UHGV virus genome: UHGV-0121437
DNA: 13,778 nt
From: a virus
Strand: one strand, 5' to 3'
A model generated the notes under the pieces. That model ran no database searches. It was not told where the DNA came from and saw only the letters and a program-made list of their open reading frames with translations. Shown here piece by piece: positions 3,517 through 11,648 of this stretch; position 1 is the first letter of the stretch; every line of letters begins with the position of its first letter. The position numbers and the translations under genes are program-made.

Positions 3517-4074
3517 TCAGCAGTTCGTCATCAGGGCGTCACCGCCACCGCCGGTGGCTTTGCTGCGGCGCTGCTGGGTCAGACTTTCGGTGTGGTCGAG
3601 ACTGTTTTTCAGGCGGGTGAATGCCTGACTGGTTTCATCCGCCCTGTCAGTTACATCCTGCTTAAGTGCCGAAAAGGCGGTTTCCATCTCAGCAAGGCGC
3701 TGCTCAGTGGCGCTCAGTTTTTCCTGCACATGCTCAGCGACAGCGGTCACCGCTTCATGCACGTCATTCAGACGGGCGTCATCGCTGGCCTGTTTGCGGC
3801 CAAAAATGGATTTCACCTTTTCGGTCAGGGCGGTGAACACGGTTTCAGGCAGGTCTTCAAATTCCAGCTCAACAGGCGTTGCCACTGAAATCAGGTTTTC
3901 AGGGCTTAATTTGAAGCGGTTCAGAGGGTTGTGTTTTGCCGTGCGGCAGAATTCCAGGTATTCCGTGCCGAGGCTTGCCGGGTCATCGGTGACGGCCAGA
4001 CCCACCAGATAACATTTGCCTGTATTGGCAAAGTTCGGCTGAATTTCCATTGAGGTACTCGACCGCCGTGACAT
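3517..4074 (-). pseudogene. O: Capsid scaffolding protein gpO, N-terminally truncated fragment (about 100 N-terminal residues missing)
   Basis: 185-aa ORF whose body ([28 protein letters not shown] ... [11 protein letters not shown]) matches the C-terminal two-thirds of P2 O (about 284 aa as I recall). The first codons (MSRRSSTS) are read from the antisense of Q-derived sequence, so the start is fortuitous. Confidence 0.7.
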
Positions 4075-4162
4075 TCTGGATTACGTCGAGTGCATCAGTA
4101 ACGGCAGATGGTATGAGCCACCGGTCAGCTTTACCGGTCTGGCAAAAAGCCTGCGTGCTGCC

Positions 4163-4990
4163 GTGCATCACAGCTCACCGATTTACGTCAAACGTAATAT
4201 TCTGGCCTCGACATTTATCCCGCATCCGTGGCTTTCCCAGCAGGATTTCAGCCGCTTTGTGCTGGATTTTCTGGTGTTCGGTAATGCGTTTCTGGAAAAG
4301 CGTTACAGCACCACCGGTAAGGTCATCAGACTGGAAACCTCACCGGCAAAATATACCCGCCGTGGCGTGGAGGAGGATGTTTACTGGTGGGTGCCGTCCT
4401 TCAACGAGCCGACAGCCTTCACGCCCGGCTCCGTGTTTCACCTGCTGGAGCCGGATATTAATCAGGAGCTGTACGGCCTGCCGGAATATCTCAGCGCCCT
4501 TAACTCTGCCTGGCTGAATGAGTCGGCCACGCTGTTCCGCCGCAAGTATTACGAAAATGGCGCTCATGCCGGATACATCATGTACGTTACCGATGCCGTG
4601 CAGGATCGCAACGATATCGAAATGCTTCGCGAAAACATGGTGAAGTCGAAAGGCCGCAACAACTTTAAAAACCTGTTTCTCTATGCCCCGCAGGGGAAAG
4701 CCGACGGCATTAAAATTATCCCGCTCAGTGAAGTGGCGACGAAGGACGATTTTTTTAATATCAAAAAAGCCAGCGCCGCTGACCTGCTGGACGCGCACCG
4801 CATCCCCTTTCAGTTGATGGGCGGTAAGCCGGAGAACGTCGGGTCGCTGGGTGATATTGAGAAAGTGGCAAAGGTCTTTGTCCGCAATGAGCTTATCCCG
4901 TTACAGGACAGGATTCGGGAAATAAACGGCTGGCTCGGTCAGGAGGTCATCCGCTTTAAAAACTACTCACTGGACACTGACAACAGCTGA
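4163..4990 (+). pseudogene. Q: Portal protein gpQ, 5'-truncated (first conventional start is GTG at 4163)
   Basis: 275-aa ORF, (V)HHSSPIYVKRNILASTFIPHPWLSQQDF ... YSLDTDNS, matching P2 Q (about 344 aa). The frame is open from 4043 and encodes Q-like [25 protein letters not shown] with no ATG/GTG/TTG before 4163; the authentic N-terminus is absent. Confidence 0.75.
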
Positions 4991-4995
4991 ACATC

Positions 4996-5017
4996 GCCGC
5001 CTGCGGGCGGCTTTTTT
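4996..5017 (+). terminator. Intrinsic terminator downstream of Q
   Basis: GCCGCC (4996-5001), loop TGCG, GGCGGC (5006-5011), then TTTTTT (5012-5017), 6 nt after the Q stop. Confidence 0.6.
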
Positions 5018-5158: not shown

Positions 5159-5177
5159 GTGCTTTCCCCGCCTCGCC
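5159..5177. other. cos site (19-nt cohesive-end sequence of P2-type phages)
   Basis: gtgctttccccgcctcgcc is the reverse complement of GGCGAGGCGGGGAAAGCAC, which I recall as the P2 cohesive end. It lies just beyond Q, as expected. Confidence 0.7.
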
Positions 5178-5200
5178 CGCCCGCTTCGTGGGGCGGTTTT
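5177..5200 (+). terminator. Terminator-like hairpin abutting cos
   Basis: CCGCCC (5177-5182), 8-nt loop, GGGCGG (5191-5196), then TTTT (5197-5200). Confidence 0.4.
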
Positions 5201-5227
5201 AATGCAGATGCATGTGAACACTCGAGA

Positions 5228-5257
5228 TTGACTGGATAAGACCTAAGGTGCATTAAT
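5228..5257 (+). promoter_or_regulatory. Candidate sigma70 promoter for the AT-rich cassette
   Basis: TTGACT (5228-5233), 18-bp spacer, then TGcATTAAT (extended -10-like, hexamer 5252-5257), about 60 bp upstream of the first cassette ATG. Prediction by eye only. Confidence 0.35.
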
Positions 5258-5315
5258 TTTTTGTTTTTTTACATGCAGTTTGATGCAAGAACATGCCCTC
5301 TAAAGTCTTGGTTTA

Positions 5316-6365
5316 ATGTGCTACACTTTTATACAAACCTATGATAAAAGCGATAAAAAATCTTCCATTTTGGCGAACATTATGACGGATATTGAAACAG
5401 CTCGATGGAACACAGAAAGTGCCGCTTTGTTGGCACTATCAGAAATACATGGCGTTAGTTATTGGACTCTATATAAAGTTGCTCAAAAGGGAATCAGATT
5501 TAGAGACATTGTTACCAGCCAAACATTAGCCAACTTTGAGTATCTACTTGGAGTAAAACTTCATCGCCAACCTTATTATTTGAATGAAGGCAATTGGTCT
5601 GTTTTTCGGGATAGCATGATTTCTACGGCTAAAATATTACTCACACATTATCATAATAGTGGTTACAAAATCATCCACCATGGTTCTCCGAGCTATCCAG
5701 ACAAGTTGAATGACCTGTCTGAGCCGCCTTTCTGGTTGTTTGCTCAAGGCAATGTATCCTTGCTAGATAAAAAGTGTGTTGGAGTTGTCGGCACCAGAAA
5801 CCCAACCGCACTTGGAATTTATTTAACTCAAGCAGTAATCTCGCAATTTATAGATTCGGATTATTCAACTGTAAGCGGTTTAGCATATGGTATAGATCAA
5901 TCTGCACATGAAGCATCCCTGTTATTTAAAATACCGACAATTGCTGTGTTAGGTACTGGCGTAAACTCAAATTATCCCAAAAATAGTGGCGAGATGAGAG
6001 GCCATATTGTAAATAATGGCGGACTGATTCTTACTGAGTATTTACCAAACCAAAAACCATCACAGGAAAACTTTGTTCGTAGAAATAGAATTCAAGCAGC
6101 TTTAAGTGATGTATTGATCCCAGTTGAATGGGGCCTAAAAAGTGGGACATCTCATACTGTGAGATATGCTGCTCAATTAAAAAGAGCGATACTTTGTCCT
6201 TTACTTAGGGGAACTACACCTCAAGAAGAGATTAAACATGCCTTGTCAGAGTACTCAGCTACGATAATGAATATTCCACTATCCGATTTTAAAGACGTGC
6301 AAAGCTTAATTAAATCAGCATCCGGTGTAAAAACACAGCAACTTTCTCTTCTGGGAGATGAATAA
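5316..6365 (+). CDS. DprA/Smf-like protein (helix-hairpin-helix-like N-terminus plus Rossmann/SLOG-type DprA core)
   Basis: 349-aa ORF in AT-rich DNA. Core motifs resemble the DprA Rossmann domain: VGVVGTRNPTALG, VSGLAYGIDQSAHEASL, TIAVLGTGVNSNYPKNS, FVRRNRIQAALSDVLIPVEWGLKSGTSHTVRYA. The start may instead be the in-frame ATG at 5382; neither has a strong ribosome-binding site. Confidence 0.7.
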   Translation: MCYTFIQTYDKSDKKSSILANIMTDIETARWNTESAALLALSEIHGVSYWTLYKVAQKGIRFRDIVTSQTLANFEYLLGVKLHRQPYYLNEGNWSVFRDSMISTAKILLTHYHNSGYKIIHHGSPSYPDKLNDLSEPPFWLFAQGNVSLLDKKCVGVVGTRNPTALGIYLTQAVISQFIDSDYSTVSGLAYGIDQSAHEASLLFKIPTIAVLGTGVNSNYPKNSGEMRGHIVNNGGLILTEYLPNQKPSQENFVRRNRIQAALSDVLIPVEWGLKSGTSHTVRYAAQLKRAILCPLLRGTTPQEEIKHALSEYSATIMNIPLSDFKDVQSLIKSASGVKTQQLSLLGDE

Positions 6366-7641
6366 TATGTATTTAAAGGCAGTTATATTTTCAATCGCAG
6401 ATGTTGTATTACCATTAACATCTAACACTCAACCTCAGGAACTAAAATCTAGAATCGACTCTGAATTACGTAAGTTGTTTGCGTTTTTGTCATCAAAAGG
6501 GATTAAAGTTATCTTCTTGACAAATAAAAATAGAAACGTGAGAACACATGACGGGATCGTAACACTAGACGAATACCTAAAAAGGAAATTCCCAGAATCA
6601 ATTCACTTTTGCCGTGAACTCGACAACAACATACCAGCAAAACAAACAGGGAAGGCCATAGATTTCATCATGGCTGCGTTAGAATTAAAACGAAACGAAA
6701 TGATCTATGTAGGGCGTTCTCAGGAAGACTTACAAGCAGCTACCAACGGGAATACCCTATTTATTAATGCGACCTGGTATGAACCGGTTACTGAGTACGG
6801 TTTTCAATTTTCAGAACCCAAAGAAATCGCTAGATTTATTGATGTCTTTTGCTTAAGAGAGCAGTTGTGGGGATGGCAAGGGCATTTTAATGAAGATGTT
6901 CACTACTACGCCTTAGCACCATTTAGCACATATGTCCCTGAATTTACAATGTATTCAGCCAATGCAAGAGACCTCGCAAAGCTATCGGTTGGAAGCCCCG
7001 ATTTTTGGATAAGATATCTTGGTGCTAGCATTTATTTCTCTGGCTTAAGTGAAGGAGCAAGTTTTATAACCACCTACGTTGGACATAACGCTGAAGATCC
7101 TTATAAACTAGCAAACATTATGGAGCATGACCTAAAAGGTTTAGCAGTCTCATTCAAAGGAAAGTATCTAAAAGATCTATTCTTACGACATACAACAGCT
7201 ATTAAATCACAGCAAGCTCGGATAGCTAAGCAAGAAGTAAACATCACATCTCAAATAAACACCGTTAATTTAAATCCTGCCCCTATTAAAAACCTCATCA
7301 CCGGCGAAAGATATACCAACCCTCCTAAATTGAAAGGTAAGAAAATATTAGTTATTGATGATTTTTGCACTGAAGGAAATGCTCATGAAACAGCCAGAAT
7401 GTATCTAAAAGCTGCAGGCGCAAATGTAATAAATATATCGTGGTTAAAAACCATCAATCGTGACGTTTCTATCTGTGAACCAACTCGCAAGATACGGCCA
7501 TGGGAGGCCAATACACTTGATGTTGATGACATTAACTATGTCGGTACGATTGGTTATGCTGAAAATGTAACTCACGGTAGTGCACCTCAAGTGTTATCAG
7601 AAAAAATTCAACAATATGATAACTGGGACTGGCCACAATAA
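6358..7641 (+). CDS. Two-domain protein: N-terminal HAD-like fold with degenerate catalytic motifs, C-terminal type I phosphoribosyltransferase (PRTase) domain
   Basis: 427-aa ORF in AT-rich DNA. The C-terminal KKILVIDDFCTEGNAHETARMYLKAAGANVI fits the PRPP-binding loop of type I PRTases (four hydrophobic residues, DD, then T-x-G). The N-terminal KAVIFSIADVVLPL, KVIFLTNKN and MIYVGRSQEDLQAATNGNTLFINATW resemble HAD motifs I, II and IV, but the nucleophile position is not Asp. It overlaps the upstream gene by 8 bp; an alternative ATG at 6367 has GGGAG 9 nt upstream. Confidence 0.65.
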   Translation: MNNMYLKAVIFSIADVVLPLTSNTQPQELKSRIDSELRKLFAFLSSKGIKVIFLTNKNRNVRTHDGIVTLDEYLKRKFPESIHFCRELDNNIPAKQTGKAIDFIMAALELKRNEMIYVGRSQEDLQAATNGNTLFINATWYEPVTEYGFQFSEPKEIARFIDVFCLREQLWGWQGHFNEDVHYYALAPFSTYVPEFTMYSANARDLAKLSVGSPDFWIRYLGASIYFSGLSEGASFITTYVGHNAEDPYKLANIMEHDLKGLAVSFKGKYLKDLFLRHTTAIKSQQARIAKQEVNITSQINTVNLNPAPIKNLITGERYTNPPKLKGKKILVIDDFCTEGNAHETARMYLKAAGANVINISWLKTINRDVSICEPTRKIRPWEANTLDVDDINYVGTIGYAENVTHGSAPQVLSEKIQQYDNWDWPQ

Positions 7642-7654
7642 ATTAATCCCATAA

Positions 7655-7690
7655 TTTAAAGTGCCCCCTAATAATGGGAGGCACTTTAAA
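7655..7690. terminator. Strong hairpin, probable (possibly bidirectional) terminator between the cassette and A
   Basis: Perfect 11-bp stem: tttaaagtgcc (7655-7665) pairs with ggcactttaaa (7680-7690), 14-nt loop, A/T-rich flanks; 14 bp after the PRTase-gene stop. Confidence 0.5.
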
Positions 7691-7816
7691 TATTAAGAAG
7701 ATAATGTCATTAAGCGAAATTTAACTATAATTTAAAACATTACAATTATTATTTTTTAAACTTTACTATTACCCAATCCATCAATAAGACCTGTATTTAT
7801 TCGTAATTTAATAGCC

Positions 7817-10072
7817 TTACCACTCATCAATCACTGGATATTTGAATTTTTTATTATCATAAATCACCATCGCCCCACGCGCCAGCGCCTCAAGCTCCCA
7901 TCGCTGAGGCCTGATACCGTTCTGAGCAAGGTCAACGCGGATACGGGTAATTTGCAATCGTTCCGGCCGGGTCAGCCTGGCCGATGGTGCAATTTCATGT
8001 GGTTTTAACGGGCTTCCGTTTCTTTGCTGACGATTTGGTGTTCTCAGGCCGTGTTTTAATGCGCCCCTGAGCACCCTCACGACCTCCGGGTCATTCCATT
8101 CGATAACACCGTCATCAACCAGATTAAGCACTGCTGCGGCGTGTTCAGAAGGTGTGGGAGCCGGTAACGAAGTATCACCACCGGTGAGCTTTCCACAGTT
8201 ATTGACAGGACTCCGAGGCGCGGCGATGCCGCTTTTTAAAGTCAAAGGCTCAACGACCGGCACTTTCGGAACAATGCGCCAGTCCGTCGTTCTGGTGATA
8301 TGAATATGACGCGCGCCGAGATGCGGCGCGTAAATGCCGACCACTCTCCCGACTTCTTCCTCGTACTCGTTAACGTCATCCGACGGACTACGGGCAACCC
8401 TGACAGTCTGACAATCGCGCGGAACATTTGCCCCACCCTGCGCGCTGATATACAACGCAAAATCACCACTGTCTGCGGCAGCGCGTGCAGCCTCGACGCG
8501 TTCGTCAAACTCATCAGCAATGCTGACGCCGCGAGGCAATTTGCGTAGTTCACGGTAAGCCCCCATTGTCGGCAGGCCAACCGTTTTAAATTGCGGAATG
8601 CGCCACGTTGACGCCCATGCGGTAACAGCCGCGGCAGTGTCTTTCAGCGGCCTGCCGGTATCGTTATCGAGCTGACCATCCAGTGCATAGCCATCGATGT
8701 TTTTTGAGATGTATTTCGCGATATATCCCGCAGCACCGCCCCGGTTAAGGTGTTTTGCCTGAAAACGGTTTCGCGCGGCTCCTCTTTCGTCACCATCCTC
8801 TTTGAGCGCATAGCGACGCATGATTTCGATAATCTGGTTACGCTGGCGTGGATTACAAAAAAGCATCATATGCCAGTGCGGCGTTCCGTCGTGGTGTGGC
8901 TCGACGACTCGCAAACCGTAGACCTGTAAATCATTATCCTTGAATGCCGTGCGCATCAGGCTCCAGATGCGGCAGAGATAACGCTGCGCATCCTTTGGAT
9001 TAAATGCCTCATCATTCCAGCCGTGATTTAGCTGGACGGTTTTACTTTCGCCTTTTCCGACCTGACGTGTCGGGTGATACTTTGACGGCGCGGTCAGAGT
9101 GATAAACATCCCCACATCACCCTCTGCGGCGGCGTAACGCTCAATACCGGCGATGGTGTTCATCAGCTCCATCCGGCGAATTTCAGGATTAGAAATACTG
9201 CCCATCACCTTACTGATAAGGTCGATGCGCTCGCCGGTTTCCCTGTTTTCGAGGTCACACGATTTAAGAAATTCCAGATTTGCCTGGCGGCGTGCACGCA
9301 CATCACGAATGGCATGTTTACTGGCATAAGGAGAACGGTCTTTATTGACCTCCCCGACAGCAATCAGTAACGCCTCATGCCAGCGCATACGCTGGCCTTT
9401 AAGCTGATGAGTCCACCATTCATCGTTAAACAGACGGGCAATGGCAGAATATGCCTGCCTCGTGGTCATCTGTCCTTTACGGTATTTTTTCCAGTAGAGA
9501 GGGGAAATATTGAAAGCACGTGCAGCGCCAGCAACATGACCATACAGATGCGCCTGCGCCTCATCTGTAAACAGCGATTCTTTCTCGCCATGTGCATCAA
9601 CCCATGCATCGCAGAGTTCCTCATACATCATGAAAAGCTGCGATGAGATACGGGCGGCAAACTTTTTCAGCTCCTTGTCATTCATTCCAGGCAGGCGCGC
9701 ATAGTGGTCACGCTCTGCCAGAAACAGCAACGACGCGTCGGTGTTCATTTCATGGCGCTGATTCACGCGCTCAATACGCGGCCATAAACGGCGCTGAAAA
9801 GTGGATGTGAGGAAATAAAACCCGTGCACCGGGCTTTTATTGCGCCGGATGTAGTCATAGCGTGAAGTAAACAGCGAGCGCAAAAAGTAAGGCAGGCGAT
9901 TAATCGTGGATAAAACACCTTGCACCTGACGCATCTCGTCACGTGTAAGGGGTCTTTCGCGCCCGACGGCCTCGCGTGGCGCGTTCCATGCATAAGCACC
10001 GGTAAACGTCTCACCGGTGCCTGCGGCAAATGCTGACGGAGGGACAAAACGCCCGGAGGCTTTAACGGCCAT
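7817..10072 (-). CDS. A: Replication initiation protein gpA (rolling-circle nicking endonuclease)
   Basis: The long ORF matches P2 A from MAVKASGRFVPPSAFAAGTGETFTGAYAWNAPREAV. The start is placed at the ATG at 10070-10072; the ORF-track start at 10114 adds 14 codons with no ribosome-binding site. Confidence 0.9.
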   Translation of the reverse strand: MAVKASGRFVPPSAFAAGTGETFTGAYAWNAPREAVGRERPLTRDEMRQVQGVLSTINRLPYFLRSLFTSRYDYIRRNKSPVHGFYFLTSTFQRRLWPRIERVNQRHEMNTDASLLFLAERDHYARLPGMNDKELKKFAARISSQLFMMYEELCDAWVDAHGEKESLFTDEAQAHLYGHVAGAARAFNISPLYWKKYRKGQMTTRQAYSAIARLFNDEWWTHQLKGQRMRWHEALLIAVGEVNKDRSPYASKHAIRDVRARRQANLEFLKSCDLENRETGERIDLISKVMGSISNPEIRRMELMNTIAGIERYAAAEGDVGMFITLTAPSKYHPTRQVGKGESKTVQLNHGWNDEAFNPKDAQRYLCRIWSLMRTAFKDNDLQVYGLRVVEPHHDGTPHWHMMLFCNPRQRNQIIEIMRRYALKEDGDERGAARNRFQAKHLNRGGAAGYIAKYISKNIDGYALDGQLDNDTGRPLKDTAAAVTAWASTWRIPQFKTVGLPTMGAYRELRKLPRGVSIADEFDERVEAARAAADSGDFALYISAQGGANVPRDCQTVRVARSPSDDVNEYEEEVGRVVGIYAPHLGARHIHITRTTDWRIVPKVPVVEPLTLKSGIAAPRSPVNNCGKLTGGDTSLPAPTPSEHAAAVLNLVDDGVIEWNDPEVVRVLRGALKHGLRTPNRQQRNGSPLKPHEIAPSARLTRPERLQITRIRVDLAQNGIRPQRWELEALARGAMVIYDNKKFKYPVIDEW

Positions 10073-10337
10073 ATGAGCCAAAAGCCTCTGAACAACGCTT
10101 GCTGAGTTGCTCAACCTGCGCGTTTAAATCAGCAAAAGACTTTGCGCTTCCGGTCAGAATATCGTGATGCATCAGGCCGGAAACGAGCTGGCTTAATTTC
10201 GGGTAATAACCAGCCACCGCCAGCCATTCCTGACCGGCGTTTTTACCGCTTTCCGCTCTCTTTTTCTCGTGGAGAATAAACTGAAAGCTGTCACTGGTAA
10301 CGACATAACGTTCGCCAATTTCAATACGAATACTCAT
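10062..10337 (-). CDS. Small early-operon protein immediately upstream of A (P2 orf83 position)
   Basis: 91-aa ORF MSIRIEIGERYVVTSDSFQFILHEKKR...; its start overlaps the preceding stop (ATGA) and its end overlaps the A start. Confidence 0.6.
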   Translation of the reverse strand: MSIRIEIGERYVVTSDSFQFILHEKKRAESGKNAGQEWLAVAGYYPKLSQLVSGLMHHDILTGSAKSFADLNAQVEQLSKRCSEAFGSYGR

Positions 10338-10558
10338 GACGTTCTCCGGTAATGTTTGTTTTTTGCTTCAAAGACTGACTGGCAGGAAACACAACGCGTG
10401 GCTGACGGATAAGCCGCACGACGGGCAGCAGGTATTGGCGCGTCACACTCTTCGCAAACCAGCGCAGAAACACCGCAATGCTTTACCCTTGCCGCGTTAA
10501 TCTGGCGCTCCAGTAATTCAGCCTGTTGTTCCTGAATAAAATCTACGTTGTCCGGCAT
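10334..10558 (-). CDS. TraR/DksA-family C4 zinc-finger protein (P2 orf82 position)
   Basis: 74-aa ORF with four Cys arranged C-x(6)-C-x2-C ... C-x2-C (HCGVSALVCEEC ... RCVSCQ), typical of TraR/DksA-like zinc fingers. Confidence 0.65.
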   Translation of the reverse strand: MPDNVDFIQEQQAELLERQINAARVKHCGVSALVCEECDAPIPAARRAAYPSATRCVSCQSVFEAKNKHYRRTS

Positions 10559-10863
10559 TACCAGCTCCTTTTGTCGTTAAGTTTTTTAAATTCATCAGCG
10601 CAATAGCTGGCAATTTCTGTCGTTAATTTCGTCAGTTCATCCACGGAGGAGATTTGCTTGTGAAATACAGCGCGTTTAACAAGTAAATTGACCACATCAG
10701 ACAGGAGATTTAATTCGTTCTGATAAATCGCGATAACAGACTCAGTTATTTCGCGTTTTTCTTTATCAAGACCAAGTTGAATAAGAGATAAATCGCCATT
10801 TTTCATAACGGCGATTTTTAAGGCGTTATTCAGTAATACAACTGAACGAGAACAGGACATCAA
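10558..10863 (-). CDS. Early-operon hypothetical protein (P2 orf81 position)
   Basis: 101-aa [34 protein letters not shown]...; overlapping stop/start with both neighbours; visibly more AT-rich than neighbouring genes. Confidence 0.55.
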
Positions 10864-11084
10864 AGCACCTCCCCGCGAGACAATCCGATATTGTGAAATT
10901 TTTCCGACTCCTGACTGAGCAGCTCGACTATCTCCACGCGGGATAACTCCGCCTTTGTGATGTGGCGAATCATGGCGTCAAGATGAGAAGAAAAGCGCGT
11001 CGCTGCGTCGGCCTGTGCTTCGGTTCTGGCCTGTTGCAGCAGTAATGCGTATTTACCGCACTGATTTTCAGAAACTGTATGCAT
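10860..11084 (-). CDS. Early-operon hypothetical protein (P2 orf80 position)
   Basis: Product starts [24 protein letters not shown]; the ATG at 11082-11084 is preceded by GGAGAAAG. The ORF-track start at 11117 is an extension. Confidence 0.6.
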
Positions 11085-11147
11085 GACTTTCTCCAGGCAA
11101 AAAGAAGCCCCGCACAATTAAGTGCGTTAAAAACTCTGGTTAATTAC

Positions 11148-11648
11148 TTAATGCAGATATTGCTCTGGTTTTACCGACGTCAGAATTGTCGGTGCATACT
11201 CAAACAGGCTGAATAATTCACGTAATGCACGGAATAAAGCATCACGCCAGTAACATGATTCTTCATTAATTCGCCAGTATGGCTGGTTGAATTCTTTTTC
11301 AGTCAATCCGGCATGCATAAATAAAGTACGACGCTGACTGACTGTTAAAAAACTAATATATGCATACTCACTTGCGCCAACCTGACGGCGTTTTGAGAAT
11401 GCCCCACGCAATTCATCAATTGCACATACCAGTCGTTCACGTTCGACATCATTCATTTCTTCAAAACGCATCGTTGCGTGACGCTGTTTTAACTGCGCAT
11501 GGAAGCAAACCGTTAGCCGTTCGCGTTCCATCATCTGATTATAATAATCGCATGTCTCCTGCCAGCGAGGGACGGCAAGATGCTTACCAATTATCCGGCG
11601 CATAGCTGCTGGCTGTTTTTCAACGAGATTAAGCGTCATCACTGTCAT
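11148..11648 (-). CDS. B: Replication protein gpB
   Basis: 166-aa ORF MTVMTLNLVEKQPAAMRRIIGKHLAVPRWQETCDYYNQ..., matching P2 B in length and sequence as recalled. Confidence 0.85.
   Translation of the reverse strand: MTVMTLNLVEKQPAAMRRIIGKHLAVPRWQETCDYYNQMMERERLTVCFHAQLKQRHATMRFEEMNDVERERLVCAIDELRGAFSKRRQVGASEYAYISFLTVSQRRTLFMHAGLTEKEFNQPYWRINEESCYWRDALFRALRELFSLFEYAPTILTSVKPEQYLH

Follow-up and report, generated by a model that had tools for sequence, protein, structure and literature searches.

The DprA-like gene of the P2-like prophage remnant UHGV-0121437 is very probably shosA, the antitoxin gene of the ShosTA anti-phage system

What does a gene for a DprA-like protein do in a prophage, directly beside a gene for a PRTase? 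The question is raised by virus genome UHGV-0121437, a stretch of 13,778 nucleotides that is called the window below. An earlier note on this DNA had pointed to an AT-rich DprA-like gene in an accessory cassette, and inspection of the sequence bore this out. An open reading frame (ORF) runs uninterrupted from 5316 to 6365 on the plus strand, and its product carries a full-length match to the Pfam domain DNA_processg_A (PF02481; E 9.8e-60, 201.8 bits against a cut-off of 29.6 bits). We conclude with high confidence that this gene is shosA, which encodes the antitoxin of the two-gene anti-phage toxin-antitoxin system ShosTA; the judgement takes in, as one explanation, the role of the pair as prophage cargo and the mechanism set out below. 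Nothing that we found contradicts the identity of the gene pair as predicted from the sequence.

The assignment was made with PADLOC profiles and solved structures. The PADLOC model for ShosA (PDLC02997) matched the product of the long ORF with an E value of 2.2e-231 and 764.6 bits, and its whole profile (1-327 of 327) aligned with residues 23-349. Residue by residue, the protein encoded in the window is 100% identical to PDB entries 9vzo_A ('DprA-like antitoxin protein ShosA') and 8zva_A. On the evidence of PADLOC, PDB identity and PGAP, shosA is placed at 5382..6365 (+), with 327 codons plus a stop. Its first residues, MTDIETARW from the ATG at 5382, are common to crystallised ShosA, the PADLOC profile and the RefSeq/PGAP annotation (a 984-nt CDS in a 99.5% identical locus), and the protein is 327/328 residues long in PGAP and in both crystal structures. 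No convincing Shine-Dalgarno sequence precedes either candidate start, 5316 or 5382. We therefore chose 5382 because the annotation, the profile and the constructs used for crystallisation all begin there, and the start at 5316 was dropped. The 349-residue form from 5316 occurs only in the longest-ORF reading and in an older annotation of phage P2_4C9, and its 22 extra codons are probably untranslated.

[quoted passage not shown] The earlier note had called this N-terminus helix-hairpin-helix-like, a description that does not hold in the strict sense and gives way to the SAM domain, whereas the Rossmann core it proposed holds. Residues 95-313 (5664..6320, +) form a Rossmann-fold DprA domain in the crystal structures, and PF02481 matches residues 113-317 of the long ORF. 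The remaining residues 314-327 (6321..6362, +) make up a C-terminal tail, described as disordered by Yang et al. (2026, NAR, PMC12961424). As reported in Pu et al. (2025, Nat Commun, PMC11961720), a ShosA truncation of residues 1-313 was stable and the instability of the protein was due to its C-terminus. The functional residues of published ShosA are all present in the protein of the window; the roles assigned to them by Yang et al. (2026) are ssDNA binding for R139, R234 and R261, RecA contact for K200 and R206, and the dimer interface for L181 and F182.

The PRTase gene that adjoins shosA had been taken in the earlier note for its partner, and in this the note was correct. The next protein is 100% identical to the crystal sequence of ShosT (PDB 8zvb_A, 'ShosT'; also 8zvc and 8zvd), and the PADLOC ShosT model PDLC03012 matched over its full profile (1-427 of 427; E 4e-296, 979.5 bits). 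The toxin gene shosT occupies 6367..7641 (+) and has 424 codons plus a stop, as supported by PADLOC, PDB identity, the published numbering and the 1275-nt CDS of PGAP. The longest ORF over the gene (6358-7641, +) would add the residues MNN. Its start at 6358 was dropped because the published residue numbers (D331/D332, R56, N53, K54 and K92) fit only the 424-residue form, because a GGAG motif lies 9 nt upstream of the ATG at 6367 but directly adjacent to that at 6358, and because of the PGAP call. ATG 6367 is thus the most likely start. The N-terminal part of ShosT (residues 1-164; 6367..6858, +) is a HAD-type hydrolase/pyrophosphatase domain, with weak, sub-threshold Pfam matches to Hydrolase and HAD_2, and is so described with a structure and a PPase assay in the published work. 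The C-terminal part (residues 165-424; 6859..7638, +) is a non-canonical PRTase domain, for which Pfam Pribosyltran reached 22 bits, below its cut-off of 26.3 bits, and for which PRPP co-crystals are published. The DD motif that binds PRPP, D331/D332, is present in the ShosT of the window.

The two genes form a tightly coupled operon on the same strand, with the antitoxin gene upstream. With the start of shosT at 6367, they do not overlap by 8 nt but are 1 nt apart, the TAA of shosA being at 6363-6365. No further ORF of at least 50 residues was found on either strand within 5316-7641. The GC content is 0.386 in shosA, 0.380 in shosT and 0.371 in the whole variable segment around the pair, against 0.53-0.54 in the flanking portal gene Q/cos region and in gene A, and 0.509 in the smf gene of E. 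coli K-12. Thirteen nucleotides past the shosT stop, a strong hairpin is predicted at 7654..7691 (+) (RNA fold -21.8 kcal/mol, z = -6.25, with 0 of 200 shuffles as stable), which is likely to be a terminator that closes the cassette against the convergent gene A. A scan for sigma-70 promoters in 5178-5381, upstream of shosA, passed none, and the site counts were no higher than in shuffled sequences; activity of published ShosTA from a 'native promoter' is reported by Pu et al. (2025). Rfam at gathering thresholds identified no structured RNA family in the window.

The surroundings of the pair are those of a P2-like prophage. Pfam domains of the small terminase, P2-type major capsid, GPO scaffold, portal, GPA replication protein and integrase were found around it. 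Homology to phage P2 extends through the terminator of the portal gene and the cos site to 5206, 29 bp beyond cos, and resumes at 7820 within gene A. The left border is portal gene Q (4054..4990, +; Pfam Phage_portal), which lacks about its first 33 codons because of a deletion. It is followed by a Rho-independent terminator (4996..5011, +), found by a terminator scan and homologous to the annotated tQ of P2, and by a P2-type cos site (5159..5177, -), whose 19-nt cohesive end GGCGAGGCGGGGAAAGCAC matches exactly bases 1-19 of NC_001895, annotated there as cosL. The right border is gene A (7817..10114, -), with a Phage_GPA match of 414.6 bits and the annotation of replication endonuclease in a relative. 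Between the two, the limits of P2 homology define a variable segment (5207..7816) that replaces orf91, tin and old of P2 and holds shosA and shosT, transcribed like old and tin from cos towards A. Variable cargo of a P2-like element is therefore what lies between Q/cos and gene A, and the earlier description of an accessory slot rather than a competence or smf context was correct: the neighbours are cos, portal gene Q, gene A and shosT. Here ShosTA is cargo of lysogenic conversion: it sits in the prophage's cos-proximal hotspot, where P2 has old and tin.

This slot and this cassette are known from elsewhere. Rousset et al. (2022, PMC9122126) described the gpA-gpQ interval of P2 as a hotspot of anti-phage systems, and a DprA+PRTase system which they cloned from it protected against T7 and lambda. 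The sequenced P2-like phage P2_4C9 (NC_049388) has the same cassette with 99.9% DNA identity, and a search of 5426 complete E. coli genomes found the full cassette in 30. Two side observations concern the neighbouring P2 genes. The homology to P2 gene A begins, at 7820, only 33 nt before the stop of that gene in P2, so that the hotspot boundary falls within the 3' end of this gene, and orf91 of P2 (DUF3850) is absent. In the early operon, an ORF of 166 residues at 11148-11648 (-) has no Pfam match and is annotated as hypothetical in relatives; judged by its position and length, we take it to be probably the homologue of P2 gene B.

ShosTA is intact, but the prophage that carries it is a non-inducible remnant that bears two large deletions. 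Compared with the prophage of strain PCP06021, which is intact and 98-99% identical, 2362 bp are missing across genes O, P and Q. Scaffold gene O has lost about 105 codons from its 5' end, the large terminase gene P is gone altogether, and Q lacks the codons noted above; the junction of this deletion at about 4054-4057 (region 4040-4070) has a GGAG-independent 4-bp homology, GGTA. At the left end of the window, positions 1-113 are a piece of tail gene D, from the late control D family (about codons 319-356 of 387). This fragment is fused at 113/114, with a 2-bp homology, TA, to lysozyme gene K (region 1-541), which is truncated at about codon 143 of 165. The fusion of D to K indicates that the intervening genes were lost; presumably these were the tail module, as in the gene order of phage P2. 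Neither junction was found in the 5426 complete E. coli genomes, and the deletions are either strain-specific or an artefact of assembly. As reported by Pu et al. (2025), ShosA promotes recombination and deletions between repeats of 6-8 bp. That such short-repeat recombination by ShosA contributed to these deletions, with their homologies of 2 bp and 4 bp at a single locus, is pure speculation and highly improbable; were it so, the prophage would have been disabled while the defence cassette became fixed in the host.

The function of the pair has been studied with proteins identical to those encoded in the window, since the structures of Pu et al. (2025) and Yang et al. (2026) are those of ShosTA from E. 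coli APEC O1. In the experiments that these papers describe, ShosT alone was toxic and ShosA rescued the cells in colony-forming assays. ShosTA expressed from its native promoter lowered the plating of T7 about 10^6-fold (Pu et al. 2025). Co-crystal structures in both papers place PRPP in the PRTase domain of ShosT, bound via D331 and D332, and the toxicity was abolished by the D331A/D332A mutation as well as by R285E. Expression of ShosT shifted purine metabolism and caused filamentation and genome duplications, and the purines tested were not bound by ShosT, as reported by Pu et al. (2025).

Both papers describe ShosA as a homodimer with SAM and DprA Rossmann domains that binds ssDNA more strongly than dsDNA. 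Its binding to RecA and ssDNA was followed by EMSA, pull-downs and the mutants R139E, R234E, K200E and R206E, and its antitoxin activity was lost in R139E, R234E, R139E/R234E, L181E/F182E, K200E and R206E (Pu et al. 2025; Yang et al. 2026). [quoted passage not shown] 2026). In the co-purification and co-crystallisation described in these papers, no contact between ShosA and ShosT was detected; the system is accordingly of type IV, as ShosA does not bind ShosT. Of the gating of the effector that the earlier note had proposed, the functional pairing with ShosT remains, but not a direct contact.

The two papers stress different triggers. Pu et al. (2025) emphasize the shut-off of transcription by the T7 protein Gp0.7 which, together with the intrinsic instability of ShosA, is a demonstrated trigger: co-expression of Gp0.7 killed cells with ShosTA, the ShosA protein fell after infection and ShosT persisted, and transient chloramphenicol or rifampicin treatment was toxic to ShosTA cells. 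When T7 SSB was co-expressed, no toxicity followed in the experiments of that paper. Yang et al. (2026) emphasize ssDNA. The phage escape mutants described in the two papers map to SSB, primase-helicase and Gp0.7. The sensing of phage ssDNA or replication intermediates, which had been suggested from the sequence of the window, matches hypotheses put forward by Rousset et al. (2022) and Yang et al. (2026), and is partly borne out by the work on the identical protein.

By analogy with the identical proteins, the cassette of the window would have both toxin-antitoxin and defence activity. The first steps of the mechanism that we favour have been shown in the published experiments on those proteins. 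ShosT, a fusion of a HAD-type pyrophosphatase with a non-canonical PRTase, binds PRPP and perturbs purine metabolism, and it causes DNA duplications, filamentation and death. ShosA neutralises this toxicity indirectly and needs for it R139, R234, the dimer interface and the RecA contact by K200 and R206. The later steps are inferred or debated. In uninfected cells, continuously produced ShosA may channel RecA-dependent recombination repair and so offset the damage by ShosT. Upon infection, two routes are conceivable. By one, which is debated, the shut-off of host transcription by the phage (Gp0.7 in T7) would halt the resupply of the unstable ShosA; by the other, likewise under debate, phage ssDNA or replication intermediates may titrate ShosA off RecA. 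The function of ShosA would be lost by one or both of these routes, after which the stable ShosT could block the replication of cell and phage DNA and cause abortive infection.

We then considered whether ShosA might instead be a genuine DprA/Smf orthologue, a recombination mediator for transformation or phage recombination that merely happens to lie beside a metabolic PRTase. The strong Pfam DprA domain, the PGAP name 'DNA-processing protein DprA', the binding of ssDNA and RecA as in DprA, and the presence of DprA-like proteins in other phages all speak for this idea. However, ShosA scores 171.2 bits with the equivalog model TIGR00732, below the cut-off of 191.15 bits, and 128.6 bits with that for enterobacterial DprA (NF008007), below its cut-off of 495 bits. 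It has 30% identity to E. coli K-12 Smf over 213 residues, in the Rossmann core only, and solved canonical DprA proteins match it only at E values of 1e-15 to 1e-22. The chromosomal gene lies in the arrangement smg-smf / def-fmt, and no smg or def-fmt neighbours adjoin shosA. Moreover, every one of the 5426 complete E. coli genomes searched has smf (5423 of them with at least 80% coverage), against 30 genomes for the cassette, so that the hosts of the cassette keep a separate smf, a point that the earlier note had raised for checking. The gene next to shosA, finally, encodes a toxin which, as the papers on the identical proteins report, ShosA neutralises. A canonical placement with host-like GC content and synteny, by which the earlier note would have been refuted, thus fails, a canonical smf orthologue was ruled out on the equivalog scores, the low identity and the universal presence of smf, and ShosA is a distinct paralogue; the orthologue idea retains next to no probability.

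DprA domains are grouped in the comparative-genomics literature with nucleotide-binding Rossmann folds of the SLOG type, and the label 'Rossmann fold nucleotide-binding protein Smf' occurs in old annotations. From this, ShosA could be conceived as a protein that senses a small nucleotide ligand and thereby controls ShosT allosterically, the second possibility raised in the earlier note. Against such a sensor, the antitoxin activity tracks the residues that bind ssDNA and RecA, the published co-purification and co-crystallisation detected no contact between ShosA and ShosT, and no ligand bound to ShosA is mentioned in the accounts of its structures from the two papers; we regard it as extremely improbable. 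A third reading accepts the gene pair and concerns its role at this locus, where it might serve mainly for addiction, stabilising a decaying prophage remnant, and not as an active defence. The pair has the published properties of a true toxin-antitoxin system whose antitoxin is labile, which agrees with this reading, as does a prophage that has lost tail genes and the large terminase and has kept the cassette whole. The identical system nevertheless confers the T7 protection described above from its native promoter (Pu et al. 2025), the hotspot is one populated by defence systems (Rousset et al. 2022), and addiction and defence are not mutually exclusive, so that we consider a mainly addictive role unlikely.

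For identical sequences, the gene pair, its slot, the anti-phage activity, the crystal structures and a working mechanism have already been published, and none of these is new here. The novelty that the earlier note implied fails for this reason, since the exact protein pair from the same hotspot has been tested and crystallised, and what it proposed for the DprA+PRTase pair has essentially been in print since Rousset et al. (2022). As a discovery, the finding carries little weight; it adds one more defence cassette that has outlived the prophage which delivered it. Its use lies in annotation. In homologous loci (for example, 9384-11643 of the PCP06021 prophage locus), the RefSeq/PGAP name is 'DNA-processing protein DprA' for ShosA and 'hypothetical protein' for ShosT. 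The former name is misleading, because ShosA falls below the dprA equivalog cut-offs of NCBIfam itself, and the RefSeq labels should read ShosA and ShosT.

Among known systems, the closest is ShosTA of E. coli APEC O1 (Millman 2022; Rousset 2022; Pu 2025, PDB 8zva/8zvb; Yang 2026, PDB 9vzo), in which both proteins are 100% identical to those of the window. The gene order, the spacing and the P2 gpA-gpQ slot are also the same, and the cassettes show no differences; only the carrier differs, the prophage of the window being a remnant with two large deletions. In PsyrTA and RqlHI, as in ShosTA, the antitoxin belongs to the DprA family and faces a toxin that acts on nucleotides or causes DNA damage. 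The match of the PADLOC model for PsyrA to ShosA, however, was weak (83.6 bits versus 764.6 for the ShosA model), and the toxin of the window matched ShosT models only. The old-tin cassette of P2 occupies the same cos-proximal slot in the same direction and is likewise anti-phage cargo of lysogenic conversion, but its proteins and mechanisms are unrelated to those of ShosTA, OLD being an ATPase-nuclease and Tin excluding T-even phages. The canonical DprA/Smf proteins (E. coli smf b4473, S. pneumoniae DprA 3uqz and H. pylori DprA 4ljr) have in common with ShosA the DprA Rossmann domain, conserved ssDNA-binding arginines, dimerisation and RecA binding, and the S. pneumoniae protein has an N-terminal SAM domain as well. 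E. coli Smf (374 residues) has a C-terminal extension to which no Pfam match was found in ShosA. In contrast to these proteins, ShosA has an extra helix, alpha14, and a destabilising tail; its AT-rich gene is carried horizontally and paired with that of a toxin, and the protein acts as an antitoxin.
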